A stretch of DNA of 64,000 nt from an uncultured Acidobacteriota bacterium (GCA_963714035.1 OY970224.1:1375688-1439687); one strand, 5' to 3'; shown: positions 13,175 through 40,695, counted from the first letter of the stretch. Made by a program: numbers and translations. Notes: generated by a model not told the origin, from the letters alone.

Positions 13175-14425
<1,251 letters not shown>

Positions 14426-14428
14426 GGG

Positions 14429-14674
14429 TCAGCTTTTCTGCGCGTGCTTTTCGATGTAGTCGTAAGCGTCCTTGACCTTCTGGATCTTCTCGGCGTCCTC
14501 ATCCGGAATCTGGATGTTGAACTCCTCCTCGAAGGCCATGACCAACTCCACCGTGTCGAGCGAATCGGCGCCGAGATCGTCGACGAAGGAGGCTTCGGGC
14601 GTCACTTGCGCGGCATCGACCCCCAGCTGCTCGACGATCTTGCTCTTCACGCGCTCCTGAATGCTGTCCGCCAT
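14429..14674 (-). CDS. acpP: Acyl carrier protein
   Basis: [19 protein letters not shown]...[20 protein letters not shown] (phosphopantetheine Ser in DSLD). RBS GGAGGAG upstream of ATG 14672-14674. Confidence 0.9.
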
Positions 14675-14765
14675 CACTCCTCCTCGATCCAAATCTCTCG
14701 TTTTTAGCGCCTCGCGCCCAAGCCCGCGTATTCTACACGAGGGCATTCTTCCCGCAACCGGGCTT

Positions 14766-16574
14766 CTAGAGGGCCGGTCCCTCCGCCCCGAGCAGCTCGC
14801 GGCGAATCAGGGCGATCGGGATCGCTCCTTCCTTCAGGAACGCGTCGTGGAACTTCCCGAGATCGAAGGAAGCCCCTTCCCGGGCCTTCATCTGGTCGCG
14901 AAGCCGGACGATCATGAGCTTGCCGAGCTGGTAGCGGAGGTAACCGGGGTCCTGCGTCCCCCGCAGTGCCTCGACCATGGCGTTGTGGGGCGTCATGAAG
15001 GCGTTCTTCTGAAAGAACGCCGCCGCCTCGTCGACCGTCATCCCTTCGGTGTGAAGGGCGATTCCCGCCAGATAGCGGCACGCCCGCTGGAGCGCCGCCT
15101 GGATCTGCGCCAGCCGGTAGCTCGGATCGTCCCCGTGGAGCCCCTGGTCCAGCATCATCTCCTCGCAGTAGAGGGCCCACCCCTCGGCGTTGGCGCCCGA
15201 CGCGAAGAGCGACCGCACCCGGTCGGGATTCAGGCGGTTGTTCAGGAACTGCGCGTAGTGCCCGGGATACACCTCGTGGGCGGAAAAATTCGAGATCGAG
15301 GGAGCCGAGAAGAACTCGAGGAGCTGTTCGGCCTGTTCCGGCTTCCAGGACGGCTCGGGAAGCGTGACGTTGAAATAGGCCTCGGTCGCCTTCTCGAACG
15401 GGCCGGGCGTGTCCATCGACGCGAACGACGTCGCGCGCGCGAAGGGCGGCGTCTCCTGCACGATCGGCCGGACCTCGGAGGGCAGCGTCGCGAGCCGGTG
15501 CGAAACGACGAACGCGCGAAGATCCTCGAGCCCGGCCTTCACCGCCGGGATCACCTGGCTCGCCTCGGGATGCCGGCGCGCGAGGGCCTGATAGACCTCG
15601 GCGGGCGGCTTGCCCGGATCGATCTTCGCGGCCGTCTCCCGGAACTCGGCGAGCAGCCGGGCGAGCTCCTTCTTTCCGATGTCCTCGAGCGTCGAGATCG
15701 GCGTGTCGACCATGTCGTCGTCGGCGAGCATGCGCTGGTAGGCCGACGCACCGATCGCGAAATGCCCGTTCGCCCTCGTCAGGAGGTCGTCGTTCAGCCA
15801 CTTTCCGTAGGCTTCGATCGCCTCGATGACGCGCGCGTTCGCGTCGGCGAACGACTTCTTCGCCGGCCCCTCCGGGACGGCCGCGAAAGCCGCCGGCAGG
15901 TCGTTCCGGAAGAAGGAGAGCGTTCCCGGCATCTGCCGGAGCGCGATCTCGACCGAGACTTTCGGAGTCTCTCCGGGCGTCAGCATCGCGCGGGCGGCGG
16001 CGAGATTGGCGAGCGAGGCCCGCTCCCGCGCGGCCGCGATGCGCATTCGCTCGGCGAGCGGCGCGAAGTCGCGCTGGATCAGGCCGTAGATCGCGGCGGT
16101 CGGCAGATAGGAACCCGGATTGACGCGGGCCGTCTTCCATTCCGTCTCGCGGAGGACCTGGCCGTCGATGAACGCCAGCAGCCATTCCCGGTCCGACGCC
16201 TCGTGCGGGGAGAGGCCGCGCGGGTCGATCGACGAGAACCTTTTCTTCCAGGCGAGGGCCTGCGCGAGACGGCGGCGTCCGCCTTCCGCGGACCGGTCCG
16301 TGACGAGCTCGTCGAAGCGGTGCTCCCCTTCCTCCGTGGCGAGCTCGGGATGGAGCCGGAAGTTCTCCTCGACGAAACGGTCCACCTCGGTCTTGAAGGC
16401 TCCATCCCCGGAGCCGGCCGCGGCCATCGTGGAAGTTGCGGCCGGCGAGGCCGCGAGGGCGGCCGGCGACGCCGCGAGGGCGGCCGGCGACGCCGCGAGG
16501 GCGGCCGGTGAGGCCGCGAGGAATGCTGTCGCCACCGCCGCGAGAACGACGATCGGAAGCCGGAAGTCACGCAT
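14766..16574 (-). CDS. Secreted DUF885 family protein (possible metallopeptidase-like), inserted between fabG and acpP
   Basis: Start [15 protein letters not shown] with RBS GAGGAGG. Signal region contains the (ASPAALA)n repeat. Body matches the DUF885 pattern from memory (…[11 protein letters not shown]…, [10 protein letters not shown]). The upstream part of the listed 907-aa ORF overlaps fabG and is not coding. Confidence 0.7.
16446..16524. repeat. 21-bp tandem repeat (~3.7 copies) encoding (ASPAALA)n in the DUF885 signal peptide
   Basis: cg(a/c)(g/c)gccgcgagggcggccgg repeated head to tail, 16446-16524. Confidence 0.8.
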
Positions 16575-16585
16575 CGAGAGCCTCC

Positions 16586-17326
16586 TCACATGTACAGGCC
16601 GCCGGAGACGTTCAACACGTGCCCGGTGACGTATCCCGCCTCGTCGGAGGCCAGGTAAACGGCCGCCCCCGCGACATCCTCTCCCGAGCCGAGGCGCTGG
16701 AGCGGGATCTGGGAAGCAAGCGATTCCTTCGCGGCATCCGTCATCTTGTCCGTCATCGCCGAGGTGATGAAGCCGGGTGCGATCGCGTTGACGGTGACCT
16801 GCCGCGAGCCGACCTCCCGCGCGAGCGACTTCGTGAGACCGACGAGCGCCGCCTTCGCCGCGGCGTAGTTCGCCTGGCCCGCATTGCCCATCAGGGCCAC
16901 CACCGAGGTGATGTTGATGATCCGCCCCGAGCGCTGCCGGATCATCATCTTGATCGCGGCCTGCGAAAGCAGGAACGCGCCGGTCAGGTTCGTCGCGATC
17001 ACGCGATCCCACGACTCCTTCGTCATCCGCAGGATCAGGTTGTCTTCGGTGATGCCGGCATTGTTGACGAGGACGTCGAGGCGCCCCTCGCCGTCGGCGA
17101 TTCCCTTGATCGCGGCGGCGACCGAGGCCGGGTCCGCCACATCGAGGGAAACCGCGCGGGCCTTGCCGCCCGCCGCCTCGATCGATCCGACCAGCGTCGA
17201 GAGCTTGTCGGCGCTCCGCGCCGCGCAGAGGACGGTCGCGCCTTCCGATGCGAACCGGCGGGCGATCGCTTCGCCGATCCCCTGGGAAGCGCCCGTCACG
17301 AGCGCGATCTTTCCGTCCAATCGCAT
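16586..17326 (-). CDS. fabG: 3-oxoacyl-[ACP] reductase
   Basis: SDR motifs TGASQGIG, NNAG, YAAAKAA. ATG 17324-17326 with GGAGG RBS. Confidence 0.9.
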   Translation of the reverse strand: MRLDGKIALVTGASQGIGEAIARRFASEGATVLCAARSADKLSTLVGSIEAAGGKARAVSLDVADPASVAAAIKGIADGEGRLDVLVNNAGITEDNLILRMTKESWDRVIATNLTGAFLLSQAAIKMMIRQRSGRIINITSVVALMGNAGQANYAAAKAALVGLTKSLAREVGSRQVTVNAIAPGFITSAMTDKMTDAAKESLASQIPLQRLGSGEDVAGAAVYLASDEAGYVTGHVLNVSGGLYM

Positions 17327-17406
17327 CGGTTCCTCCCCGCTTTTCGAACGACTTTCTACCACGGCGGCGGCGCGAACCCGCGGGGACGCCGCGATAAGAT
17401 CCGGCC

Positions 17407-18855
17407 ATGGCCGAAGTTCCGAGTCTCTCCAGCTTCGTCGGCGGCGTTTTCCGCCCTCCGGCGCAGGCCGGCTTCGTCGACGACGTCAACCCTTCCGACG
17501 CCTCCGACGTGATCGCGCGCGTGCCGGCGGGCGATCCGTCCGACGTGGATGCCGCCGTCGAGTGGGCGGCGGGCGCGCTCCCCGCCTGGCGCGGCCGGAC
17601 CGGGCCGCAGCGGGCCGAAGCGCTCTGGGCCTGGAGCGACGCGATCGCGGCCCGGCGCGAAGAGATCGCGCAGATGATGGCGCGCGAGGTCGGAAAGCCG
17701 ATCAGCGAGGCGCGCGGAGAGGCGGCGAGATGCGTCGCGATCCTCCGGTACTACGCGGGCGAATCGGTGCGCGAGATCGGCGAGGTCATTCCCGCGCAGG
17801 CCGCCGGCGCGCTGCAGTTCACGCTTCGGGAGCCTCTCGGCGTCGTCGCGCTCATCACTCCGTGGAATTTCCCGACCGCGATCCCGCTCTGGAAAACCGC
17901 TCCGGCGCTCGCTTTCGGGAACGTCGTCGTGCTGAAGCCCGCCGAAGCCGCGTCCCGCTGCGCCGTGCTGCTCGCGGAAACTGCCGCGGCGGCGGGAATT
18001 CCTCCCGGCGTCTTCAACGTGGTCCTCGGCTCCGGCGGGAAGATCGGTCCCCCGCTCGTCGGGCACGAGCGCGTCCGGGCGGTGAGCTTCACGGGCTCCG
18101 GCAACGTCGGCGCGCAGATCGCGGCCGCGGCGTCGCGGCGGAACATCCGCTACCAGACCGAAATGGGGGGGAAGAACGTCGTGATCGTCGCGCCCGACGC
18201 GGATCTCGATCTCGCCGCGACGCTCACCGTCGCCGGCGCGATGCGCTACGCGGGGCAGAAGTGCACGGCGACGAGCCGCGCCGTCGTCGACCGCCGGGTG
18301 CGCGACGCCTTCCTCGCGAAGGTCCGGGACCAGGTCGACGCTCTCGTGCTCGGCCCGGTGACGGACCCGGGGGCCGCCGTAGGCCCGCTCATCAGCCGCG
18401 AATCACAGGAGTCAATCGGTCGCGCGCTCGCCGGCGCGGCGCCGGAAAGCGTTCACGGCGGGAGACTCCCCGCCGGAGAGGCATGGTCCCGAGGGTTCTT
18501 CTGCTCGCCGGCCGTCGTTCAGAACGCCGATCCCGACTCTCCGATCGCCCGGGACGAGCTCTTCGGTCCCGTCCTCGCGACGTTCGAAGCCTCCGATCTC
18601 GACGAGGCAATCGCGCTCGCCAACCGGACCGAGTACGGGCTCTCGGCTTCCCTGTTCACGCGCGACATCAAATCGGCGCTCGCGTTCATCCCGAAGATCG
18701 AGGTCGGCCTCGTCCGGATCAACGGCGACACGACCGGGGTCGATCCGCATGCGCCGTTCGGCGGGATGAAGGGCTCGAGCTCCGGGAGCCGCGAGCAGGG
18801 CCCGGCCGCGCGCGATTTCTACACCGAGATCAAGACGGTCCAGATCAATCCGTGA
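17407..18855 (+). CDS. NAD(P)-dependent aldehyde dehydrogenase; by context 2-oxoglutarate semialdehyde dehydrogenase
   Basis: ALDH family motifs (ITPWNFP, catalytic GQKCTA, ELGGK-like EMGGKN, FTGSGNVG). Context assignment only. Confidence 0.8.
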   Translation: MAEVPSLSSFVGGVFRPPAQAGFVDDVNPSDASDVIARVPAGDPSDVDAAVEWAAGALPAWRGRTGPQRAEALWAWSDAIAARREEIAQMMAREVGKPISEARGEAARCVAILRYYAGESVREIGEVIPAQAAGALQFTLREPLGVVALITPWNFPTAIPLWKTAPALAFGNVVVLKPAEAASRCAVLLAETAAAAGIPPGVFNVVLGSGGKIGPPLVGHERVRAVSFTGSGNVGAQIAAAASRRNIRYQTEMGGKNVVIVAPDADLDLAATLTVAGAMRYAGQKCTATSRAVVDRRVRDAFLAKVRDQVDALVLGPVTDPGAAVGPLISRESQESIGRALAGAAPESVHGGRLPAGEAWSRGFFCSPAVVQNADPDSPIARDELFGPVLATFEASDLDEAIALANRTEYGLSASLFTRDIKSALAFIPKIEVGLVRINGDTTGVDPHAPFGGMKGSSSGSREQGPAARDFYTEIKTVQINP

Positions 18856-19083
18856 TGTTGCTGTCGAGAGTGCTCATCGGCAGCTCACCGTCGAGAGCCT
18901 TCGTCGGCGTTGGAAAATTCGAAATCCGAAACGCCAGACTCGAACCAATCGCGAAAACCGAATGACCGAAATCGCAAAGCGGGACCCCGTTTCGAGCTTC
19001 GATATTTGGATTTGTTTCGGATTTCGAAATTCGGACTTCGAATTTTGGATGCCTCGAGCGCCGCGGTCGGGCGAACGCCACCG
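18856..19083. promoter_or_regulatory. Unusual low-GC intergenic region with multiple TTCGAA-centred palindromes and long imperfect inverted repeats upstream of the hydroxyproline epimerase gene
   Basis: aaattcgaaatccgaaac ... gtttcggatttcgaaattcggacttcgaatt; reverse-complementary arms ~18 nt long. GC content far below the ~70% window average. Confidence 0.35.
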
Positions 19084-20031
19084 ATGAAGCTTCCCGAGAA
19101 GATCCGCGTAATCGACTCCCACACCGAGGGCGAGCCGACCCGCGTCGTCGTCGAGGGATGGCCGCCGCCCGCGGGCGCGACGATGGAAGAGCGACGCCGG
19201 GACATGAAGGCGAACTTCGATCCCCTTCGACGCGCCGTCCTGTGCGAACCGCGCGGGCACGAGGCGGTCGTCGGGGCGCTGCTCACGCCGCCCGTGCACG
19301 ACGGATCGCTCGCCGGCGTCGTCTTCTTCGACAACGCCGCTTATCTCGGGATGTGCGGCCACGGAACGATGGGGGTCGTCCGGACGCTCGAATACCTGGG
19401 GCGCCTCGCGCCGGGCCCCGTCGCGCTCGACACGCCCGCTGGCACGGTTTGTGCCGAGCTCGCCGTGGACGGCTCCGTCACGATCGAGAACGTCCCGGCG
19501 TTCCTGCACGCCCGGGACGTCTCGGTCGAGGTGCCGGGCGTGGGCCGCGTGACCGGCGACGTCGCGTACGGCGGAAACTGGTTCTTCATCACGCCCTGGG
19601 AGCCTCCGCTCGTGGCTTCCGACATCGACGAGCTCACGCGGGTCACGCGCGCGATCTCGGAGGCGCTCCGGCGGGACGGGGCGACCGGCGCCGGCGGCGC
19701 GGAAATCGATCACATCGTGCTGTTCGGCGAGAGCGACCGTCCCGACGCCGACCGCAAGAATTTCGTGCTTTGCCCGGGAAACGCGTACGACCGCTCGCCG
19801 TGCGGCACCGGAACGTCGGCGACGATGGCGATGCTGCACGGGCGCGGACGCCTCGCCCTCGGCCAGGTCTGGCGGCAGGAAAGCATCATCGGCAGCCTTT
19901 TCCAGGGCTGGCTCTCCGCGCGGGGCGATGCCCTCGTGCCGCACGTGCGAGGGACGGCGTTCGTGACGGGAGAGGCCACCCTGCGCTTCGATCCGCGAGA
20001 CCCGTTCCGGCTGGGGATTCCGCCGGCATGA
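19084..20031 (+). CDS. 4-hydroxyproline 2-epimerase (proline racemase family)
   Basis: IRVIDSHTEGEPTRVV N-terminus. Both catalytic Cys contexts present (LGMCGHGT and SPCGTGTSA), i.e. Cys/Cys = epimerase/racemase type. Strongly resembles Pseudomonas HypE/LhpA as recalled. Confidence 0.85.
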   Translation: MKLPEKIRVIDSHTEGEPTRVVVEGWPPPAGATMEERRRDMKANFDPLRRAVLCEPRGHEAVVGALLTPPVHDGSLAGVVFFDNAAYLGMCGHGTMGVVRTLEYLGRLAPGPVALDTPAGTVCAELAVDGSVTIENVPAFLHARDVSVEVPGVGRVTGDVAYGGNWFFITPWEPPLVASDIDELTRVTRAISEALRRDGATGAGGAEIDHIVLFGESDRPDADRKNFVLCPGNAYDRSPCGTGTSATMAMLHGRGRLALGQVWRQESIIGSLFQGWLSARGDALVPHVRGTAFVTGEATLRFDPRDPFRLGIPPA

Positions 20032-20167
20032 TCCGGCCGCGTTTCGAAGCCCGAAACCGTTTCGGAGCTCGGGAGGCCGGCGTTTCGTGTATTGTTTCGA
20101 GGCCGGTGTTGCGGATCCCGACCTCCCGGCGGGGGGCGCGTCCGTGTCGACTCCGGGATCGCCGGGC

Positions 20168-21286
20168 ATGACCCCGGACTCCTTCGACGCGATCGTCGTC
20201 GGCGCCGGGATCGTCGGGGCCGCCTGCGCCGAGGCTTTGTCGGCCGACGGAATGCGCGTCGCGGTCCTCGACGCGGCGTTCCCCGGCGGCGGCACGACGG
20301 CCGCGGGAATGGGCCATCTCGTCGCGATGGACGACTCCGAGCCCCAGCTCGCGTTGACGGGCTGGTCGAATCGGCTCTGGAAGGAGCGGGCAAGCTCCCT
20401 GCCCGCGGCCTGCGAGATGGATCCCTGCGGAACGCTCTGGGTCGCCGAAGACGGCCCGCAGATGGCCGAAGTCGAACGGAAGCGCGAGCGCTACGAGTCC
20501 CACGGCATCGCCGCGGAGGCTCTCGGACCGGCGGAGCTCGCGCGCGCCGAGCCGAACCTCCGCCCGGGCCTCGCGGGCGCGCTCCGGGTCCCGGGAGACG
20601 CGGTCCTGTATCCCCCGGGGGCCGCACGCGCGCTGCTCCAGTCGGCGCGAGCGCGCGGAGCGATCGTGCGGGCGGGGACGGAGGTGCGCGCGATCGGACC
20701 CGGCGAGGTCGAAACGGCGGCCGGAAACGTTCGCGCGCCGGTCGTCGTCAATGCGGCCGGTCCGCGCGCCGCCGAGCTCACGCCCGGGCTTCCCATCGTC
20801 CCGAGGAAGGGCCATCTGGTCATCACCGACCGCTACCCCGGTTTCTGCCGCCACGAGATCGTCGAGCTCGGATACCTCGCGAGCGCGCACAGGATGACCG
20901 CGGAATCCGTCGCCTTCAACGTCCAGCCGCGGGCGACCGGCCAGATCCTCATCGGCTCGTCCCGCGAGCTCGTCGGCTGGGACGCGGCCGTCAACCCGCG
21001 GGTCCTTTCGAAAATGCTCTCGCGCGCCCTCGATTTCCTTCCTTCTCTTCGCGCGCTCTCGGCGATCCGTACCTGGACCGGCTTCCGCCCGGCCACTCCC
21101 GACAGGCTTCCGATCATCGGCCGATGGCGGGGCGTGGACGGCCTCTGGATCGCGGCGGGACACGAGGGCCTCGGAATCACGACGTCGCTCGGCACGGGCC
21201 GGCTGATCGCGGACCTCGTCGCGGGGCGGCGGCCGCCGATCGACCCGGCGCCGTTCGATCCGAACCGCTCCGCCGCGGCCGCATGA
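20168..21286 (+). CDS. FAD-dependent oxidoreductase, beta subunit of a D-hydroxyproline dehydrogenase-like (opine-oxidase/HcnC-type) complex
   Basis: Dinucleotide fold DAIVVGAGIVGAACA at the chosen ATG 20168. ORF table starts at 20087, which would add 27 poorly conserved residues. DAO-family body. Confidence 0.75.
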   Translation: MTPDSFDAIVVGAGIVGAACAEALSADGMRVAVLDAAFPGGGTTAAGMGHLVAMDDSEPQLALTGWSNRLWKERASSLPAACEMDPCGTLWVAEDGPQMAEVERKRERYESHGIAAEALGPAELARAEPNLRPGLAGALRVPGDAVLYPPGAARALLQSARARGAIVRAGTEVRAIGPGEVETAAGNVRAPVVVNAAGPRAAELTPGLPIVPRKGHLVITDRYPGFCRHEIVELGYLASAHRMTAESVAFNVQPRATGQILIGSSRELVGWDAAVNPRVLSKMLSRALDFLPSLRALSAIRTWTGFRPATPDRLPIIGRWRGVDGLWIAAGHEGLGITTSLGTGRLIADLVAGRRPPIDPAPFDPNRSAAAA

Positions 21287-21537
21287 ACGAGTTTCCCCGC
21301 GTCCCGATCGTCGTCGACGATCGCCCCATCTCGGCGGAGGCGGGAACGACCGTCGCCGCCGCGCTCGTCAACGCGGGCGTCTCGGCTTTTCGCGGCTCGG
21401 TCACCGGCGCCCCGCGCGGGCCGCTCTGCGGAATGGGGATCTGCCACGAATGCCGCGTCACGATCGACGGCATCGCGCAGCGCCGCTCGTGCATGATCGA
21501 AGTGGCCGCGGGAATGCGGATCGAGACCCGTGGCTGA
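21283..21537 (+). CDS. 2Fe-2S ferredoxin-like small (gamma) subunit of the three-component oxidase
   Basis: 84 aa with Cys cluster CGMGICHECRV...C. ATGA overlap with the upstream gene. Confidence 0.75.
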   Translation: MNEFPRVPIVVDDRPISAEAGTTVAAALVNAGVSAFRGSVTGAPRGPLCGMGICHECRVTIDGIAQRRSCMIEVAAGMRIETRG

Positions 21538-22810
21538 ATCGCTCGCCGCGGACGTCGCGGTCGTGGGGGGTGGCCCGGCGGGAATCGCCGCCGCCGCCGT
21601 CGCGGCCGAGGCGGGAAAGCGGGTGCTGCTCCTCGAGGAGAACCCTCGCCCGGGCGGGCAGATCTGGCGGCATCGGGCAGGCGCGATCCCCCCGAAGGCT
21701 CGGCGCTGGATCGACCGTCTGGCCCGTTCGGGAGCGGTCCGCGTACCCGGCGCGGCCGTGCACGCGATCTCGGGAGCGTTCACGCTCTCCGCCGAAAGCG
21801 CCGGCGCGGCGATCACCGTCTCCGCGAAGACGCTCGTCGTCGCGACGGGCGCGCGCGAGCGATTTCTCCCGTTTCCGGGCTGGACCCTCCCGAACGTGAT
21901 CGGGATCGGCGGAGCGCAGGCGCTGCTGAAATCGGGCGTCTCTTTCTCCCAACGCCGCATCGTGATCGCCGGATCGGGTCCCCTCATCCTTCCCGTCGCG
22001 GCGTCGCTCGCGCGCGCCGGAGCCCGAATCGCCCTCGCCGCGGAGCAGGCGCCGGGCGGCGCCGTGATTCGCTTCGGCCTCGGGCTGTGGCGAGCTCCGG
22101 GACTGCTCGCCGACGCCGCGGGTTACCGCCGCGCCTTTCTCCGCACGCCCTACCGGTTCGGAACATGGGTGCTCGAAGCGCGCGGACGCGACCGGGTCGA
22201 GGAGGTCGTCGTCACCGACGGCAACGTGACGTGGACCGAGCGCTGCGATGTCCTCTGCACGGGATTCGGGCTCGTTCCGGCGACCGAGCTCGCCCGCCTC
22301 GCCGGATGCCGGATCGACGGCGACGCCGTCGCGGTCGACGAGCGGCAGGGCACATCCGTCGAGGGCGTTTTCTGCGTCGGCGAGGCATGCGGCGTCGGCG
22401 GCGTGGAGAAGGCGCTCGCCGAAGGCCAGGTCGCCGGGTGCGCCGCCGCCGGCCGGTCGCCGCGGCGCGGACCGGTAGCCGCCGCGCGCCGCGGTCGCCG
22501 CCACGCCGCCGCGCTCGATCGGGCGTTCCGGCTCCGGGAGGAGCTCCGTTCCCTTCCCCGGCCCGACACGATCGTCTGTCGCTGCGAAGACGTCCTGACC
22601 GCCGCACTCACCGCCGCCGGCTCCGCGCGGGAGGCGAAGCTCGCGGTCCGGGCGGGAATGGGCCCCTGCCAGGGGCGCGTCTGCGGCCCCGCGCTCCAAT
22701 ACCTTTTCGGCTGGGAATCGGATACCGTCCGCGTGCCGATCTCCCCCGTTTCGATCGGGACGCTCGCGGCGATCGACGCCGAAGCGCCTCCGCGCAAGGA
22801 GGGCGAATGA
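21530..22810 (+). CDS. FAD/NAD(P)-binding pyridine-nucleotide-disulfide-type oxidoreductase, alpha subunit (HcnB/OoxA/LhpF-like)
   Basis: VAVVGGGPAGIAAA and a second Rossmann stretch IVIAGSGPLILPVAASL; C-terminal Cys-rich segment (IVCRCEDV, GPCQGRVCGP). GTG start 21530 overlaps the gamma-subunit stop by 8 nt. Confidence 0.8.
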   Translation: MAESLAADVAVVGGGPAGIAAAAVAAEAGKRVLLLEENPRPGGQIWRHRAGAIPPKARRWIDRLARSGAVRVPGAAVHAISGAFTLSAESAGAAITVSAKTLVVATGARERFLPFPGWTLPNVIGIGGAQALLKSGVSFSQRRIVIAGSGPLILPVAASLARAGARIALAAEQAPGGAVIRFGLGLWRAPGLLADAAGYRRAFLRTPYRFGTWVLEARGRDRVEEVVVTDGNVTWTERCDVLCTGFGLVPATELARLAGCRIDGDAVAVDERQGTSVEGVFCVGEACGVGGVEKALAEGQVAGCAAAGRSPRRGPVAAARRGRRHAAALDRAFRLREELRSLPRPDTIVCRCEDVLTAALTAAGSAREAKLAVRAGMGPCQGRVCGPALQYLFGWESDTVRVPISPVSIGTLAAIDAEAPPRKEGE

Positions 22811-23709
22811 ACCGGACCGACTGGAAAGGGGTCTTCCCCGCGATCACGACGCCGTTCCGCGAAGGGCTCGCCGTCGATTTCGATTTCCTGCGCGAGCACG
22901 TCCGCTGGCTCCTCGAAAAGGGATGTTCGGGAATCGTTCCGCTGGGATCGCTCGGGGAATCCGCGACGCTCACGCTCGACGAGAAGCTCGCGATCCTGCA
23001 GACCTGCCGCGAAGCGGCCGGCGGCCGGGCGCCGGTGATCGCGGGAGTCGCCGGCCTTTCTACGGCCGAATGCGTCGCCCTCGCCCGGGGCGCGGAGGAG
23101 ACGGGGTGCGATGGCCTGATGGTCCTCCCCGCCTACGTGTATCGCGGGGACACCCGCGAGAGCGAGGCGCACGCCGCCGCCGTCCTCGACGCGACGGCCC
23201 TCCCCTGCATGCTCTACAACAACCCGATCGCCTACGGGACGGACTTCCTGCCGGCTCAGATCGCGACGCTCGCGCGCCGGCACCCGAACCTCCACGCCGT
23301 CAAGGAATCGGCCGGCGACGTCCGGCGCGTGACGGGGATCCGCGAGATCGCCGACGACCGCCTCGCGATCTTCGTCGGCATCGACGACATGATCGTCGAG
23401 GGGATCGCGGCTGGCGCCGTCGGCTGGATCGCCGGCCTCGTCAACGCGTTCCCGGCGGAGTCCGTCCTTCTCTTCGATCTCGCGATGCGCGGCGATCACG
23501 AGGAGGCGAGGCGACTCTACGAATGGTTCCTTCCGCTCCTGCGGCTCGACACGGTCCCGAAGTTCGTCCAGCTCATCAAGCTCGTGCAGCAGGAGGTCGG
23601 GCGCGGCAGCGAGCGCGTCCGCCCGCCGCGCCTGCCGCTCACGGGCGAGGAGCGCGAGGCGGCGTTCGACGTGATCCGGGGCGCGGTGCGCGCCCGCGTG
23701 ACGCTCTAA
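22807..23709 (+). CDS. Dihydrodipicolinate synthase family protein; by context delta1-pyrroline-4-hydroxy-2-carboxylate deaminase
   Basis: DHDPS/NAL family fold (GVFPAITTPF, ...VKESAGD... with Schiff-base Lys). ATGA overlap with the upstream gene. Confidence 0.85.
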   Translation: MNRTDWKGVFPAITTPFREGLAVDFDFLREHVRWLLEKGCSGIVPLGSLGESATLTLDEKLAILQTCREAAGGRAPVIAGVAGLSTAECVALARGAEETGCDGLMVLPAYVYRGDTRESEAHAAAVLDATALPCMLYNNPIAYGTDFLPAQIATLARRHPNLHAVKESAGDVRRVTGIREIADDRLAIFVGIDDMIVEGIAAGAVGWIAGLVNAFPAESVLLFDLAMRGDHEEARRLYEWFLPLLRLDTVPKFVQLIKLVQQEVGRGSERVRPPRLPLTGEEREAAFDVIRGAVRARVTL

Positions 23710-23745
23710 ACGGGCCCGCGGCGAGACGCCGCTCGCTGGCGCCGC

Positions 23746-25161
23746 TCAGCGCCCGCGAATCGTCTTTTCGACGTCGTTCGTTTCCCGAGGCGCTGCACAG
23801 GAAAGGCAGTCCATTCCGGAGGCGATCACGAGGACGTCGTCCTCGATCCGGACGCCGATGTTCCACCACTTCGGATCGACGTCCTTGGCGTGCTCCGGGA
23901 TGTAGATCCCCGGCTCGACCGTGAACGCCATCCCGGGTTCGAGCCGCGCCTGCGCGAGCGAGTAGCGCTCGAGACGGGGAGCATCGGGATTGGAGATCGC
24001 GTAGCTCCCGACGTCGTGGACGTCCATCCCGAGCCAGTGCGACGAGCCGTGCGGATAGAAAGCCGTGTACGCGCGCGTCTTCATGATTTCAGCCCGGTCG
24101 CCGTGGAGGATCCCGAGCCGCAGGAGCCCGTCCACGACGACGTCGACGGTCGCGTCGTGGACCTCGTGGAACGCGGCACCCGGACGGACCTTCGCGAAGC
24201 CCGCTTTCTGCGCCGCGAGCACGAGGTCGTAGATGGCCCGCTGTTCCGGTGAGAACCTCCCGGAAACCGGATAGCTCCGCGTGACGTCGGCCGCGTACAT
24301 GCCGTACTCGCAGGCGGAGTCGTTGACGATCGTCTCCCCGGCGCTCATTCGCCGGTCGTCGCGTTCGTAGTGCAGGATCACCGAGTTCGGACCCGATCCC
24401 ACGATCGAGGGATATGCCATCCGCAGCGCGCCGCCTGCCGTGCAGACCGATTCGAGCGCCGCGCGCACCTCGTACTCGTACTTCCCCGGACGGACGGCCT
24501 TCATCGCCGCGATGTGGCCTTCCGCGGAGAGCTCGGCGGCGCGGCGAAGGAGAGATTGCTCGGTCGCGTCCTTGACGAGCCGCAGGCGATGGACGAGCGG
24601 ACCGGCTTCCGCCGAAGGGCGGAGCTCCGCCGACTGGGCGTCGGCCGTCTCCCATGCGTCGTGGAGCTTTCCGCGGAACGCCGAGTCGCCGCCGTCGCTC
24701 CAGAGCAGCATCCGCGCGCCGCGCCAGAGACCCGGGATCTCCTTCCAGAAGTCCGCGGCGGCGTACGACGCGTCCGCGCGGAAGTCCGATTTCGCGCCCT
24801 CCAGTCCGGTGCGCCACCCGGTCCACTGCTCGGAAGCGAAGTCGCGGGGCCGCACGAACAGGAGGTACCGCGGTCCTTCGGCCGCGCCCGGCCGAAGGAC
24901 GAGGATCGCATCGGGCTCCGAGAGCCCGGTGAGGTACCAGAAGTCGGAGCTCTGGCGGTACAGGATGCCGACCTCCGACGCGACGTCGGGCGCCGCGCGG
25001 AAGACCGCGATCGACCCCGCCGGCATCGCCGCGAGGAACGCGGCGCGATGCGCCGCGAAGAACTCCGGGCCGGGCGCCGGAGCGGGCGAAGCCGCAGGGG
25101 CGCTCGCCGAAAACAGGAGGGCCGCCATCGCGGCCACGGAAGCAAAGCGGATCGTTCGCAT
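23746..25161 (-). CDS. Secreted Xaa-Pro aminopeptidase (M24B family)
   Basis: Signal peptide MRTIRFASVAAMAALLFSASAPAASPA; M24 metal ligands/motifs (YPSIVGSGPNSVILHY, HGSSHWLGMDVHDVG, EPGIYIPE). Strong GGAGG RBS. Its start lies 10 nt downstream of the fabD stop. Confidence 0.85.
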   Translation of the reverse strand: MRTIRFASVAAMAALLFSASAPAASPAPAPGPEFFAAHRAAFLAAMPAGSIAVFRAAPDVASEVGILYRQSSDFWYLTGLSEPDAILVLRPGAAEGPRYLLFVRPRDFASEQWTGWRTGLEGAKSDFRADASYAAADFWKEIPGLWRGARMLLWSDGGDSAFRGKLHDAWETADAQSAELRPSAEAGPLVHRLRLVKDATEQSLLRRAAELSAEGHIAAMKAVRPGKYEYEVRAALESVCTAGGALRMAYPSIVGSGPNSVILHYERDDRRMSAGETIVNDSACEYGMYAADVTRSYPVSGRFSPEQRAIYDLVLAAQKAGFAKVRPGAAFHEVHDATVDVVVDGLLRLGILHGDRAEIMKTRAYTAFYPHGSSHWLGMDVHDVGSYAISNPDAPRLERYSLAQARLEPGMAFTVEPGIYIPEHAKDVDPKWWNIGVRIEDDVLVIASGMDCLSCAAPRETNDVEKTIRGR

Positions 25162-25171
25162 TTTTCCTCCT

Positions 25172-26101
25172 TCAGGCGGAGATCTGGTCCGCTCTGCCGA
25201 TCGATGCGACGGGGAATTCCTTCCGGATGCGCCGGACGAGCCCCGAGAGGACCGCCCCGGGTCCCATTTCCAGGCCTTCGGTGACGCCCATGGCGGCGAG
25301 CCGCTCGACGGATTCGACCCAGCGGACCGGAGAGGCCACCTGCCGGGCGAGGGCGGCGCGCAATTCGACGGAATTCCTCGCCTCGCGCGCGTCGACGTTC
25401 GTCACGACGGGAATCCGGGGATCGGCGATCGCGAGTCCCTGCAGCACCGGCAGGAGCCGGTCCGCCGCCGGCTGCATGAGCGCGCAGTGGAAGGGCGCGG
25501 AGACGGGGAGAGGAACGGCCTTCTTCGCGCCGCGCTCGCGGCAGAGCTCCGAGGCCCGCGCGACGGCCTCCGCGTGCCCGGCGATGACCGTTTGCTCCGG
25601 CGAGTTGTAGTTGGCGGGCCCGACGATCTTCCCGGTCTCGACCGCCGCGTCCTCGCACGCGGAACCGACCGCCTCGGCCGCGAGCCCGAGGATCGCCGCC
25701 ATCGCGCCGATTCCTTCCGGCACCGCTTCCTGCATGAACCGGCCGCGCTCGTGGACGGTCCGGACGGCGTCGGAAAAAGACAGGGCTCCCGCCGCGACTC
25801 CCGCGGAATATTCGCCGAGCGAATGCCCGGCCGCCGCGGCCGCTCCGGCGAGCCTTTCCGGACGGCGCGCTTCGAGCACGCGCAGGACCGCGATCGAGTG
25901 CGTCAGGATCGCCGGCTGCGTGTTCGCGGTGCGCCGGAGGTCCTTCTCCGGTCCGTCGAAGCAGATCCGCGAGATCGCGAACCCGAGGGCGGCGTCGGCT
26001 TCGTCGAAGACGGCTTTCGCCTCGGGGAAGGCGTCGCAGAGGTCCTTTCCCATTCCGACGGACTGCGATCCCTGGCCGGGGAAAAGGAGCGCGAGCGGCA
26101 T
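25172..26101 (-). CDS. fabD: Malonyl-CoA:ACP transacylase
   Basis: LLFPGQGSQSVGMG, GHSLGEYSA active-site Ser motif. Confidence 0.9.
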   Translation of the reverse strand: MPLALLFPGQGSQSVGMGKDLCDAFPEAKAVFDEADAALGFAISRICFDGPEKDLRRTANTQPAILTHSIAVLRVLEARRPERLAGAAAAAGHSLGEYSAGVAAGALSFSDAVRTVHERGRFMQEAVPEGIGAMAAILGLAAEAVGSACEDAAVETGKIVGPANYNSPEQTVIAGHAEAVARASELCRERGAKKAVPLPVSAPFHCALMQPAADRLLPVLQGLAIADPRIPVVTNVDAREARNSVELRAALARQVASPVRWVESVERLAAMGVTEGLEMGPGAVLSGLVRRIRKEFPVASIGRADQISA

Positions 26102-26105
26102 GGGG

Positions 26106-27089
26106 CTACCAGCGCATCAGGGCCGCGCCCCACGTGAGGCCGGCGCCGAACGCGGTCATCAGCACGAGGTCGCCGCTCTTGACGCGCCCGCCGCGCGCGC
26201 ATTCGTCGAGCGCGATCGGGATCGACGCCGCCGACGTGTTTCCGTAGCGCTCGATGTTCTTGTAGACCTTGTTGGTGTCGATCTTGAGCTGCTTGCCGAC
26301 GGCGTCGATGATCCGCTCGTTCGCCTGGTGCGGGATGAAGAGCTGGATGTCGTCGTGCGTGAACCCCTGCTCCTCGAGGACCTCTTCGGAGACCTCGGCC
26401 ATCGCGCGCACCGCGACTTTGAAGGTTTCGTTCCCCTTCATCTTGATGAACGGGAGCCGCTCGTCGATCGAGGCCGGATCGTTCGCGGGGCGCGACGAGC
26501 CTCCGCCCGGCATGCAGATGAAGTCGCCGTAGTTGCCGTTGGACTTCATCGAGGAGCCGAGGATCCCGTGGTCGCCGCGCGTCGCCTGGAGGACCGCCGC
26601 GCCCGCCCCGTCGCCGAAGAGCACGCAGGTCGAGCGGTCGGTCCAGTCGACGTATCGGGAAAGGATCTCGCCGCCGACGAGGAGCACGTTGCCGGCCTTG
26701 CCCGACTGGATGAGGCCGTCGGCGAGGTGGAGGCCGTAGAGGAATCCGGTGCAGGCGGCGGAGAGATCCGAAGCCGCCGCCCTGACCGCGCCGATGTTGT
26801 TCTGGACGAGACATGCCGTCGACGGAAAGAGCATGTCGGAGGAGACGGTTCCGACGAGCACCATGTCGAGGTCCGCGGCAGCGACGCCGGCCGCGTCGAG
26901 CGCCCGCTGGGCCGCGCGCGTGGCGAGCTCGGAGAACTTCTCGCCCGGCGCGACGATGTGCCGCTCCTTGATCCCGGTCCGGGTCGTGATCCACTCGTCG
27001 GACGTCTCGACGATCTTCTCGAGGTCGGCGTTGGTGAGCAGGCGCTCGGGCACGCAGGAGCCCGTTCCGACGATCCTGGCTCTCAGCAT
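26106..27089 (-). CDS. fabH: 3-oxoacyl-[ACP] synthase III
   Basis: RIVGTGSCVPE..., active-site Cys in AACTGF; C-terminal HQAN and GNTSAASIPIAL. Confidence 0.9.
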   Translation of the reverse strand: MLRARIVGTGSCVPERLLTNADLEKIVETSDEWITTRTGIKERHIVAPGEKFSELATRAAQRALDAAGVAAADLDMVLVGTVSSDMLFPSTACLVQNNIGAVRAAASDLSAACTGFLYGLHLADGLIQSGKAGNVLLVGGEILSRYVDWTDRSTCVLFGDGAGAAVLQATRGDHGILGSSMKSNGNYGDFICMPGGGSSRPANDPASIDERLPFIKMKGNETFKVAVRAMAEVSEEVLEEQGFTHDDIQLFIPHQANERIIDAVGKQLKIDTNKVYKNIERYGNTSAASIPIALDECARGGRVKSGDLVLMTAFGAGLTWGAALMRW

Positions 27090-27280
27090 CTCGGTCGATT
27101 ATGACAGGGTTGGCCGTAGCGGCAATTCCCGAAAATCGCGCCCCGCCTGCCGTGAATGTCGGTTCAGATCGGCGGTGAGGCACGAGCCCCCGACTCGGAG
27201 CCTTGTCGTCCCGGCGGGCGCTGGAGCGGTCGAGCCCGATGCGCGCGAAGCGAGCCGCCGCTCTACGTCTTCCCGCTCTC

Positions 27281-27420
27281 GGTGGGGCGCCGGAGCGGTC
27301 GAGCCGGGAAGGCGAGCCGCGGAGGTCACCGCGCGATTAGTCTCCGCGAGTAACCGAGCGGAGGAGGATCGCGCGGTGGGAGGCCGAGCGGTTCCAGCGG
27401 AGCGTGCCGCTCGGCCGACG
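27281..27420. repeat. Structured REP-like repeat, family A, copy 1 (tandem with copy 2; period 260 bp)
   Basis: 140-nt core ~98% identical to 27541-27680. Contains nested perfect helices caccgcgcgat/atcgcgcggtg (27328-27338 / 27368-27378) and ctccgc/gcggag (27342-27347 / 27358-27363). Confidence 0.85.
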
Positions 27421-27540
27421 GGCGCAAGTGGAGCCGGGCCACGAATCGGTTCGGAACAACCTGAAAGCGCGGTGAGGCGCGAGCCCGGCGGGATGCGGTT
27501 GTCCTGGCCACGCGTTTCCAACTCGGCGGTTTGTCGTCCC

Positions 27541-27680
27541 GTTGGGGCGCCGGAGCGGCCGAGCCGGGAAGGCGAGCCGCGGAGGTCACCGCGCGATTAG
27601 TCTCCGCGAGTAACCGAGCGGAGGAGGATCGCGCGGTGGGAGGCCGAGCGGTTCCAGCGGAGCGTGCCGCTCGGCCGACG
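27541..27680. repeat. Structured REP-like repeat, family A, copy 2; ends 1 nt before the plsX stop codon (27682-27684)
   Basis: Same core as copy 1; located immediately 3' of minus-strand plsX. Confidence 0.85.
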
Positions 27681-27681
27681 G

Positions 27682-28701
27682 TTATTGGACGTGGGCGGAC
27701 TGTTCGCGCGAATGCAGATCCGCGATCGACTCCTGGATCCGCTCGGACATGCGCTTGCGCGAGAACTCGGCGGCGAGCCGGATCGCGTTCTTGATCGCCT
27801 TGGCGGAGGATCGGCCGTGGCCGATGATGCAGCACTTCTTGACCCCCAGGAGCGGCGCGCCGCCATACTCGGAGTAGTCGATGCGCGCCTTGAACGCGCG
27901 GAACGCGGACTTCGACAGGAGGAAGCCGATCGAGGCCTTCGCCGACTTCGTGATCTCCTCGCGGAGCGACTTCTGGATCATCTCCGCCAGCGACTCCGAG
28001 GCCTTCAGCAGGACGTTTCCGGTGAAGCCGTCCGTGACGATCACGTCGCACCGGCCGTTGAACACGTCGTTTCCCTCGACGTTCCCGATGAAGTTGAGGC
28101 CCGTCTCCTTGAGGACCTTGAAGGCCTCTTTCGTCTTGTCGGTCCCTTTCGTGTCCTCCTCACCGATCGACATCAGGCCGATGCGGGGGGCTTCCATGCC
28201 GAAGAGGAGCTGGGCGTAGAGATGGCCCATCACGGCGAATTCCCGGAAGTTGTTGTTCTTGCACTCCGGGTTGGCGCCGACGTCGAGGAGCAGGCAGAAG
28301 CCGGAAACGGTCGGGATGATCGCGGCGAGCGCCGGGCGGTCCACCCCTTCGATGGTCCCGATGACCATCTTGGCCGAAACCATCGCGGCCCCCGTGTGCC
28401 CCGCCGAGACGAGGCCGTCCGCCTTGCCTTCCCGCACGAGCCCGGCCGCCACACGGATCGACGAAAACCGCTTCTTCCGCACCGCCGCGACGGCCGCCTC
28501 GTCCATGCCGACGACCTCGGGAGCTTCGACGATCTCGATCGGGACGCCGCCGGTGTCCTTCCCTTGGAGGAGCGGGGCGATCCGGGCGCGCTGGCCGACC
28601 AGGATCGTCGAGACGCCGAATTCGCGGGCGGCCGCAATCGCCCCGTCGACGTTGACGTCGGGAGCGTGGTCCCCGCCCATGGCATCGACCGCGATCTTCA
28701 T
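27682..28701 (-). CDS. plsX: Phosphate acyltransferase
   Basis: MKIAVDAMGGDHAP...; family-typical GTDKTKE..., GNVLLK motifs. Confidence 0.9.
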   Translation of the reverse strand: MKIAVDAMGGDHAPDVNVDGAIAAAREFGVSTILVGQRARIAPLLQGKDTGGVPIEIVEAPEVVGMDEAAVAAVRKKRFSSIRVAAGLVREGKADGLVSAGHTGAAMVSAKMVIGTIEGVDRPALAAIIPTVSGFCLLLDVGANPECKNNNFREFAVMGHLYAQLLFGMEAPRIGLMSIGEEDTKGTDKTKEAFKVLKETGLNFIGNVEGNDVFNGRCDVIVTDGFTGNVLLKASESLAEMIQKSLREEITKSAKASIGFLLSKSAFRAFKARIDYSEYGGAPLLGVKKCCIIGHGRSSAKAIKNAIRLAAEFSRKRMSERIQESIADLHSREQSAHVQ

Positions 28702-28717
28702 CGGAAGGAAGACGCCG

Positions 28718-28900
28718 TCAGACGTTCTTGATGTCGATGACTTCCTTCCCCTTGTAGTGGCCGCAGTGCGGGCACACCCGATGGGGAAGCTTCGCCTCGT
28801 GGCAGTTCGGACACTCGGACTTCGCCGGAGCGACCAGGAAGTCGTGGGCGCGGCGCTTGTCGCGGCGGGCCTTGCTGTGGCGGTGTTTGGGATTCGGCAT
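28718..28900 (-). CDS. rpmF: 50S ribosomal protein L32
   Basis: [19 protein letters not shown]... with CPNCHE...CPHCGHYKG zinc ribbon. Confidence 0.9.
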
Positions 28901-28902
28901 CG

Positions 28903-29469
28903 TCAGACCTCTTGTTTCAGACTCTTCAGCACTTCCAGCCGCGGATCGACCGGGCGGGTTTCACAGGAGCATTCGGAGACGTTCCGGTCCCGCCCGCACT
29001 GCGGGCAGAGCCCCCGGCAGTCGTCGCGGCAGAGCGGCTTCATCGGAAGGGCCATCAGGACCTGCTCGCGCGCGATCTCGTCGAAAGGCAGCACCGGCTC
29101 GTCGAAGAACACGACGTCGATCTCGGCCGGGTCCACCTCCCGCTCTTCGCCTTCCCCGTCGGCGGACCGCCCCTTCTCGGGTTTTCCGCCCGGCGCCGCG
29201 GGGCGCTTGCGGAGGCGGAGGTGCAGCGGCACCGCCTCGGAGAACGCGTACGGGGCGACGCAGCGGGAGCAGTCGAGCTCGCCCGACCAGGTCAGCTCCC
29301 CGTCGAGCAGGTAGTTCTCGTCCACGGACGTGATCGTGCCGCTCATCCGGATGGGAGAGAGGGAAACGAGGGGATCCCCGCCGAGCTCGGCGCCGGAAAG
29401 CGTCGTCTCGCCGGAGAACTCCAGGGGCTTTTCTCGCGCCCCTTCCAGGTGAATACGCGGCTCGGCCAT
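28903..29469 (-). CDS. yceD: YceD/DUF177 family protein (large ribosomal RNA subunit accumulation protein)
   Basis: Position immediately upstream of rpmF-plsX; C-terminal CxxC...CPQCG...C pattern typical of DUF177. Confidence 0.8.
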
Positions 29470-29570
29470 CGGAACTCGTAAAGATAGGAAAATACGGGGA
29501 TTCTGTCAAATCGGCGGCGCGAACGGACCGGCGCGCCGAATCCCGGCGGCTCCGGAACGTCGCCCGTACA

Positions 29571-40688: not shown

Positions 40689-40695
40689 TCCGCGC

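Follow-up and report, generated by a model that had tools for sequence, protein, structure and literature searches.

The genes described here lie on the + strand at positions 17407–23709 of a 64-kb window (the whole stretch of DNA that was analyzed, from an uncultured Acidobacteriota bacterium, GCA_963714035.1 OY970224.1:1375688-1439687) and very probably constitute an operon for the breakdown of free trans-4-hydroxy-L-proline to 2-oxoglutarate along the bacterial Lhp route. The locus consists of six co-oriented and intact genes, for all of which the alignments with homologues run over the full length; the gene set and the family assignments of the original prediction, made from the sequence alone, are borne out. 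Because the window has a G+C content of about 70%, raw lists of open reading frames (ORFs) are full of spurious frames, and the gene frames were picked by third-position G+C, which singles out one frame per gene. The six genes are, from 5' to 3':

17407–18855, + strand: aldehyde dehydrogenase (ALDH), 482 aa
19084–20031, + strand: epimerase of the proline racemase family, 315 aa, start as in the database gene call
20168–21286, + strand: flavoprotein of the DAO family, beta subunit, 372 aa
21283–21537, + strand: [2Fe-2S] gamma subunit, 84 aa
21530–22810, + strand: alpha subunit of the pyridine-nucleotide-disulphide-oxidoreductase family, GTG start, 426 aa
22807–23709, + strand: enzyme of the dihydrodipicolinate synthase (DHDPS) family, 300 aa, start as in the database gene call

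For the beta subunit, the database call from GTG 20087 is an alternative start and corresponds to 399 aa. Translational coupling by ATGA/GTGA overlaps, as originally proposed for several of the genes, is found in the form of ATGA at the beta/gamma and alpha/DHDPS junctions; the gamma/alpha junction is an 8-nt overlap, GTGGCTGA, and not GTGA. The remaining two junctions are uncoupled in the window, with gaps of 228 nt (ALDH/epimerase) and 136 nt (epimerase/beta).

The reference proteins of Pseudomonas aeruginosa were taken from a plasmid-collection record with the lhp region and its NCBI annotation; LhpB, LhpC, LhpE and LhpF of this species were reportedly defined in a 2012 paper by Watanabe et al. 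The pathway consists of an epimerase (LhpA), a cis-4-hydroxy-D-proline dehydrogenase (LhpB alone or LhpB/E/F), a deaminase (LhpC) acting on Δ1-pyrroline-4-hydroxy-2-carboxylate (Pyr4H2C) and a dehydrogenase (LhpG) of 2-oxoglutarate semialdehyde (KGSA) (PMC3958920).

The epimerase belongs to the proline racemase family (Pfam Pro_racemase, 320 bits) and is predicted to be a 4-hydroxyproline 2-epimerase (4HypE) of the LhpA type, which would take the first step of the pathway by inverting C2 of the substrate to yield cis-4-hydroxy-D-proline. In NCBIfam, two equivalogs of 4-hydroxyproline epimerase score highest at 358 and 354 bits—below their cut-offs of 450 and 442 bits—and lower scores are obtained for proline racemase (222 bits) and trans-3-hydroxyproline dehydratase (206 bits). 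The top seven matches in the Protein Data Bank (PDB), at 323–341 bits, are 4JCI, 4K7X, 4Q60, 2AZP (PA1268), 4J9W, 4JUU and 4JBD; of these, 4JCI, 4K7X, 4JBD, 4JUU and 4J9W are 4R-hydroxyproline 2-epimerases (Zhao et al. 2014, PMC4113996). Proline racemases in the PDB reach about 200 bits or less and 3-hydroxyproline dehydratases about 137 or less, so that the close resemblance to 4HypE claimed at the outset is upheld by seven 4HypE structures. By blastp, the protein is 53% identical to P. aeruginosa PA1268, and its Cys91 (MCGHGT) and Cys240 (SPCGTGTSA)—the pair that the original prediction had proposed for inspection—are both present and align with the catalytic cysteines of PA1268. PA1255 carries a Ser at the first site. 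The catalytic-residue rule for the Cys/Cys type of 4HypE is stated in PMC4113996.

Some 4HypEs are promiscuous and also epimerize 3-hydroxyproline (PMC4113996), and every score obtained here is below the equivalog cut-off; both points would suit an operon whose main substrate is another imino acid—D-proline, imported cis-4-hydroxy-D-proline or the 3-hydroxyprolines—and whose epimerase is promiscuous. Such a substrate is improbable, however, since all of the closest characterized homologues of the epimerase are Cys/Cys-type 4HypEs, and since the 3-hydroxyproline routes need a dehydratase and a Δ1-pyrroline-2-carboxylate (Pyr2C) reductase (PMC3958920), neither of which is present. In addition, a deaminase and a KGSA dehydrogenase make sense only downstream of a 4-hydroxylated pyrroline.

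The three subunits beta, gamma and alpha are predicted to form a heteromeric cis-4-hydroxy-D-proline dehydrogenase of the LhpB/E/F type, with beta as the catalytic FAD subunit. The beta subunit (Pfam DAO, 239 bits) is 52% identical to P. aeruginosa LhpB (342 bits), compared with 32% to HypO of Sinorhizobium meliloti (96 bits) and 28% to the nopaline oxidase NoxB of pTiC58 (68 bits). It features the ADP-binding motif GAGIVG and an Arg-X-Trp motif in the form RTWTGFR, which is also found in P. aeruginosa LhpB; Arg-X-Trp is the proposed motif of the FMN site (PMC4575208). Relatives of the beta subunit with 66–73% identity already carry the JGI name 'D-hydroxyproline dehydrogenase subunit beta', and therefore KO-style automated annotation knows this family. 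The gamma subunit (Pfam Fer2_4, 85 bits) has its cysteines arranged as C49-x4-C54-x2-C57-x12-C70, in line with the published gamma motif Cys-x4-Cys-x2-Cys-x11-12-Cys. The alpha subunit (Pfam Pyr_redox_2, 90 bits, with Fer2_BFD matching weakly) shares 45% identity with its P. aeruginosa counterpart (244 bits), compared with 31% for NoxA of pTiC58 (139 bits) and 28–30% over 55% of the length for annotated ooxA and noxA on other Ti plasmids. It features the motif GGGPAG and, in the C-terminal part at residues 350–385, a BFD-like set of four cysteines, CRC...CQGRVC, whose spacing of 27 residues exceeds the published 15–20 but whose position is the same as in the alpha subunit of P. aeruginosa.

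The three genes overlap and encode subunits of 372, 84 and 426 aa; order and sizes are the same in P. aeruginosa, and beta-gamma-alpha is the gene order reported for D-hydroxyproline dehydrogenase (PMC4575208). An α4β4γ4 assembly may be assumed for the enzyme of the window. Among the PDB sequence matches of the subunits, no solved structure of the heteromeric D-hydroxyproline dehydrogenase class was found. The flavin/[2Fe-2S] enzyme would convert cis-4-hydroxy-D-proline to Pyr4H2C, and the electrons would be passed to the respiratory chain and not to NAD.

OdhABC, NoxAB and HcnABC have the same three-subunit architecture with FAD and [2Fe-2S] motifs and Arg-X-Trp as the dehydrogenase of the window. 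A flavin-containing opine (nopaline/octopine) dehydrogenase, with the whole cluster serving opine degradation, would agree with the subunit architecture and gene order of OdhB-C-A (PMC4575208) and with a gamma subunit nearly as close to that of Nox (42% identity) as to that of Pseudomonas (45%). The identity to nopaline oxidase is much lower in the substrate-binding beta subunit, though, and the genomic partners differ: pTiC58 has arginase, ornithine cyclodeaminase and an opine transporter, none of which is nearby here, where an epimerase and a deaminase are found instead. The original prediction had named best hits to octopine or nopaline oxidase as an outcome that would tell against it; compared with nopaline oxidase, the greater likeness is to D-hydroxyproline dehydrogenase, with 342 versus 68 bits for beta and 244 versus 139 bits for alpha. 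On these identity values and the gene context, the opine oxidase reading was rejected as next to impossible. An HcnABC-type hydrogen cyanide synthase is hardly credible either, as judged by gene order, context and JGI names. The hcn genes run in the order A(2Fe-2S)-B-C, corresponding to gamma-alpha-beta, which differs from the beta-gamma-alpha order of the window. In dozens of genomes the three genes sit between epimerase and deaminase, and near relatives bear the JGI name D-hydroxyproline dehydrogenase, although hydrogen cyanide synthase belongs to the same superfamily and has the same three-subunit composition (PMC4575208).

The DHDPS-family protein (Pfam DHDPS, 203 bits) is predicted to be a Pyr4H2C deaminase of the LhpC type and not a true DapA. 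It is 40% identical to P. aeruginosa PA1254 over the full length (blastp, 237 bits) and 63% identical to the syntenic gene of Granulicella, and its Schiff-base lysine, Lys166, aligns with the lysine of PA1254. With the dapA profile of NCBIfam, the protein of the window scores 172.5 bits and PA1254 172.1 bits (cut-off, 206 bits), and the lower matches of the two follow in the same order; true DapA structures in the PDB reach 143 bits or less. Pyr4H2C deaminase is without a dedicated profile in NCBIfam or Pfam and hence has no curated threshold. The enzyme would dehydrate and deaminate Pyr4H2C to KGSA and ammonia.

The ALDH (Pfam Aldedh, 493 bits) features the catalytic residues Glu252 (EMGGK) and Cys286 (GQKC). 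In NCBIfam, KGSA dehydrogenase profiles take the first two places, GucD with 535 bits and haloarchaeal 2,5-dioxovalerate dehydrogenase with 444 bits; the next family follows at 346 bits. The respective equivalog cut-offs are 770 and 750 bits; the protein is, as judged by its profiles, KGSA dehydrogenase-like and not a certified equivalog, with the two best models leading by about 100–190 bits. Profile similarity and the operon slot together point to a GucD-like, NAD(P)+-dependent 2-oxoglutarate semialdehyde (2,5-dioxovalerate) dehydrogenase, which would oxidize KGSA to 2-oxoglutarate. GucD (YcbD) of Bacillus subtilis and the haloarchaeal 2,5-dioxovalerate dehydrogenases catalyze the reaction predicted here but act in glucarate/galactarate or pentose pathways, whereas the ALDH of the window stands in a hydroxyproline operon.

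The ALDHs of the characterized clusters are of another type. PA1253, HypH of S. meliloti and the Granulicella ALDH have 505–530 aa and are annotated 'aldehyde dehydrogenase (NADP+)', compared with 482 aa in the window. With the GucD and haloarchaeal models, PA1253 scores about 96–98 bits, and PA1253 and the Granulicella ALDH together span about 96–109 bits. The Granulicella enzyme is of the PA1253-like type and 26% identical to that of the window. Since this other type occupies the same first slot of a syntenic operon, the ALDH of the window can be read as a non-orthologous replacement with the same function. KGSA dehydrogenases reportedly arose several times within the ALDH superfamily, as Watanabe et al. 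are said to have described in 2007 in J Biol Chem 282:6685, and YcbD/GucD of B. subtilis is one type of KGSA dehydrogenase. The KGSA dehydrogenase of the original prediction thus stands as far as the best profiles go, though the protein is no orthologue of the enzymes of Pseudomonas and Sinorhizobium (about 31% identity over partial length). An ALDH that is an unrelated neighbor—a general or succinate-semialdehyde dehydrogenase, with the last step encoded elsewhere—would account for the identity of just 26–32% to its counterparts in the clusters of Pseudomonas, Sinorhizobium and Granulicella and for the 228 nt that separate it from the epimerase in this genome. This is very unlikely, given that both top profiles are KGSA dehydrogenases with a gap of ~190 bits between GucD and the best other family, that the ALDH overlaps the epimerase start by ATGA in the closest relatives, and that at least 33 related loci have it in first place in the operon (64–71% identity).

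Taken together, the six genes would supply exactly the four activities of the Lhp route, and the pathway would therefore be complete, which agrees with the full enzyme set originally proposed. Five of the six proteins appear closest to characterized P. aeruginosa enzymes, the ALDH being the exception. The family of each protein, the conserved catalytic and cofactor motifs and the synteny across two phyla are direct observations; from the homologues, we infer the actual substrates. Several points weigh against the assignment of the operon to this route. None of the proteins attains the equivalog cut-off of its best NCBIfam model, and because of this the assignments are 'closest to' statements that follow best-hit logic and context. 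The ALDH is not orthologous to its counterparts, with 31% identity to PA1253 over part of its length and 32% to HypH. Translational coupling has been lost at two junctions through insertions, which could affect expression, and a sigma-70 promoter scan of 17200–24000 found no promoter-like site. Finally, tblastn with the GntR and permease families seen in relatives found no counterpart of either in the 64-kb window; the lack of a transporter and a regulator noted originally for the cluster thus holds across the window for these two families. The terminator scan of 17200–24000 yielded one terminator-like site, fewer than in shuffles.

The lhp genes of P. aeruginosa PAO1 are PA1268–PA1265, PA1254 and PA1253 (nomenclature PMC3958920) and have four reactions in common with the operon of the window. 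Both systems share the Cys/Cys type of epimerase (53% identity), the heteromeric dehydrogenase with its subunits in the same order (52, 45 and 45% for beta, gamma and alpha) and the DHDPS-family type of deaminase (40%). The semialdehyde dehydrogenase of P. aeruginosa, however, belongs to a different ALDH subfamily (31%), and the lhp genes are scattered across a region of 18 genes that includes an ABC transporter, a GntR regulator, aconitase X and 3-hydroxyproline enzymes, whereas the window has the six genes alone. The pathway is already well characterized in Pseudomonas, and the operon of the window leaves the knowledge of the pathway unchanged.

The hyp cluster on pSymB of S. meliloti (HypRE, HypO, HypD and HypH) follows the same pathway logic with a homomeric HypO instead of beta, gamma and alpha, and it also has an ABC transporter, a GntR regulator, aconitase X and a 3-hydroxyproline dehydratase. 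The proteins of the window are 36% identical to HypRE, 32% to HypO, 30% to HypD and 32% to HypH. As these identities are only 30–36%, the cluster is of the Pseudomonas type and not of the rhizobial type.

The plasmid pACIX901 of Granulicella tundricola MP5ACTX9 carries the genes ACIX9_RS20140–20165 in the identical order ALDH-epimerase-beta-gamma-alpha-DHDPS, annotated generically and 45–63% identical to five proteins of the window. On its flanks, the cluster has a GntR regulator, M1 peptidases and GH127 beta-L-arabinofuranosidases, with an aminopeptidase P nearby. At this locus (L002 398–6020), two GH127-type beta-L-arabinofuranosidase genes lie upstream of the operon, which is followed by the M1 peptidases, a peptidyl-prolyl isomerase and the aminopeptidase P. 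Beta-L-arabinofuranosidases of the GH127 type trim arabinose from hydroxyproline in plant extensins, and the locus looks like one dedicated to plant hydroxyproline-rich glycoproteins. The collagen-like source named in the original prediction was a guess; because the Granulicella cluster adjoins GH127 genes, plant hydroxyproline-rich glycoproteins are no less plausible a source than collagen.

The conservation of the operon was assessed in a synteny sample obtained by a beta-subunit scan with one genome per species, which gave 80 loci that are at most 70% identical. Almost all of them are from metagenome-assembled genomes (MAGs) of Gemmatimonadota and Acidobacteriota. The gene arrangements are:

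ALDH-epimerase-beta-gamma-alpha-DHDPS, the order of the window: 33 of the 80 loci
ALDH-DHDPS-epimerase-beta-gamma-alpha: 5 of the 80 loci
without gamma and alpha, homomeric type: 4 of the 80 loci
cut by contig ends: many of the remaining loci

Among Gemmatimonadota and Acidobacteriota of soil, the Pseudomonas-type pathway is thus encoded by a conserved operon that includes the heteromeric dehydrogenase. Both are abundant and poorly cultured phyla, for which hydroxyproline from glycoproteins of the plant cell wall or from animal collagen may be a relevant source of carbon and nitrogen; a literature search on hydroxyproline epimerase in Acidobacteriota or Gemmatimonadota found no relevant literature. 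The six genes receive a confident functional annotation here, whereas the public labels are generic: 'FAD-dependent oxidoreductase', 'dihydrodipicolinate synthase family protein' and 'proline racemase'. In addition, a non-orthologous swap of the last dehydrogenase within otherwise syntenic operons is documented. Four Gemmatimonadota loci (L046, L053, L065 and L078) have a beta subunit of 57–61% identity in an epimerase-beta-DHDPS arrangement from which gamma and alpha are gone. These operons suggest that the accessory subunits were lost repeatedly within one beta lineage. Housekeeping genes place L005, from a Thermoanaerobaculia MAG, and L008, from an Acidobacteriota MAG, nearest to the window; their FabF is 90–93% identical to that of the window, which therefore derives from a Thermoanaerobaculia-like acidobacterium.

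In at least 35 Gemmatimonadota loci, a GntR/FCD regulator stands directly upstream of the ALDH, comparable to the GntR genes next to the lhp region of P. aeruginosa and the hyp cluster of S. meliloti. A TauE-like permease occurs in 15 loci and a DPP-IV-like S9 peptidase in 12 loci of the synteny sample. The absence of a local regulator and transporter is specific to the lineage of the window. The S9 query yielded only a weak match in the window by tblastn (29% over 222 aa, E 1e-11), to the gene at 8650–10488.

The operon sits within a canonical yceD-rpmF-plsX-fabH-fabD-fabG-acpP-fabF cluster on the − strand (13175–29505 of the window). This cluster is interrupted twice: between fabD and fabG by an aminopeptidase P gene and the hydroxyproline operon, and between fabG and acpP by an exported DUF885 gene (14766–16574). 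L008 has the same fabD-pepP-operon-fabG layout at ~70–75% protein identity, and the layout is therefore old in the lineage. The peptidase genes of the window are:

23746–25161, − strand: exported aminopeptidase P (M24B, Xaa-Pro specific; Pfam AMP_N and Peptidase_M24), convergent with the operon and abutting its 3' end
39438–40706, − strand: second aminopeptidase P paralogue (M24B; AMP_N and M24), 15 kb from the exported copy
6608–8590: M49 peptidase with a signal-peptide-like N-terminus
8650–10488: S9 peptidase with a signal-peptide-like N-terminus

The N-terminus of the adjacent aminopeptidase P, MRTIRFASVAAMAALLFSASAPAAS, reads as a signal peptide, and the same neighbor is found in L008 with 73% identity. 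This exported enzyme probably supplies peptide fragments containing Pro or Hyp, and substrate supply by it and the other nearby peptidases is plausible. The second M24B product is putatively cytoplasmic; this paralogue brings the Xaa-Pro peptidases of the genome to two, of which one is exported. The placement of the operon between secreted proline-specific peptidases, as originally described, holds for the 3' end, which adjoins the aminopeptidase P; the 5' neighbors are fabG and then the DUF885 gene, and the S9 and M49 peptidases are 7–10 kb off the operon. The signal-peptide region at the N-terminus of the DUF885 protein (about 16400–16520, − strand) contains an in-frame tandem repeat of 7 residues (21 nt) in ~4 copies; such a tract might be prone to slippage.

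In L005 and L008, the closest relatives, all operon junctions are overlaps of 4 nt; aligned with the window, the ALDH/epimerase junction is ATGA and the epimerase/beta junction GTGA or TTGA. The corresponding spacer features of the window are:

18856–19083, 228 nt: ALDH/epimerase insertion, which breaks the ATGA overlap seen in L005 and L008
about 18912–19048, ~137 nt: hairpin element, AT-rich, imperfect and built of TTCGRAW heptamers
20032–20167, 136 nt: epimerase/beta spacer with four GTTTCG motifs, absent in L005 and L008

The inverted arms of the hairpin, at 18915–18932 and 19014–19031, are 94% complementary: AAATTCGAAATCCGAAAC and GTTTCGGATTTCGAAATT. An exact 17-mer of one arm matches at least 120 metagenome contigs, which by itself could be chance. 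Among the matches listed, however, the likeness extends past the seed over 40–50 nt at 85–93% and in a few cases over 126–136 nt at 72%; copies often occur several per contig and in both orientations, the host contigs range from 30 to 69% G+C, and 17 copies form arm pairs that are 78–485 nt apart. The 120 listed copies are conserved for ~17 nt outward of the seed and end abruptly at ...CTTCGAATTTT, a terminus shared by the copy of the window. The family features TTCGAAAT-rich inverted arms with the consensus ...GGATTTGTTTCGGATTTCGAATTTCGTGCTTCGAATTTT, which the right arm and terminus in the window fit. An ORF, sometimes frameshifted, is flanked or adjoined by the arms in 7 of the 120 listed contigs; the intact one matches Pfam PF05635, the '23S rRNA-intervening sequence protein' (Avd-like four-helix bundle). 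Examples of copies among the metagenome loci L087–L206 are L121:423–564, L150:476–591 and L133:8714–9016. The hairpin is taken to belong to a real, probably mobile family of miniature inverted repeats, which is widespread and apparently undescribed.

It is conceivable, if doubtful, that an ancestral and fully overlapped operon was split by insertions, and that the one between ALDH and epimerase contains a miniature member of a widespread family of repeats, in the long versions of which a PF05635 gene is enclosed. Possibly, the epimerase/beta spacer is what remains of another such element after decay; neither a significant fold (z = +0.28) nor a convincing match was obtained for it. If the long stem were a target of RNase III, as in the intervening sequences of rRNA, the insertion would uncouple the ALDH mRNA from the five downstream genes; any effect of the insertion on the operon—coupling loss, an RNase III site or a promoter—is speculation. 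For the ALDH/epimerase spacer, the minimum free energy z-score is only −1.5, so that the folding energy does not speak for a special RNA structure. Compensatory maintenance of the arms is unsupported as well, since the identity within an element (0.82) equals that between elements (0.82) and the arms follow one consensus. A blastn comparison of the consensus element with the plasmid collection gave no match, for which the low-complexity filter is possibly responsible. An Rfam scan (16000–25500 and six metagenome loci, E ≤ 1) gave no match for the spacer element and only chance miRNA-like hairpins; elsewhere, it returned one tRNA and a sub-threshold SAM riboswitch-like match (E 1.4e-4, 36.1 bits versus a gathering threshold of 44.4). 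Unrelated to the operon, the − strand at 3766–6453 encodes a protein of 895 aa in which a Ser/Thr protein kinase is joined to PD40 (WD40-like beta-propeller) repeats.

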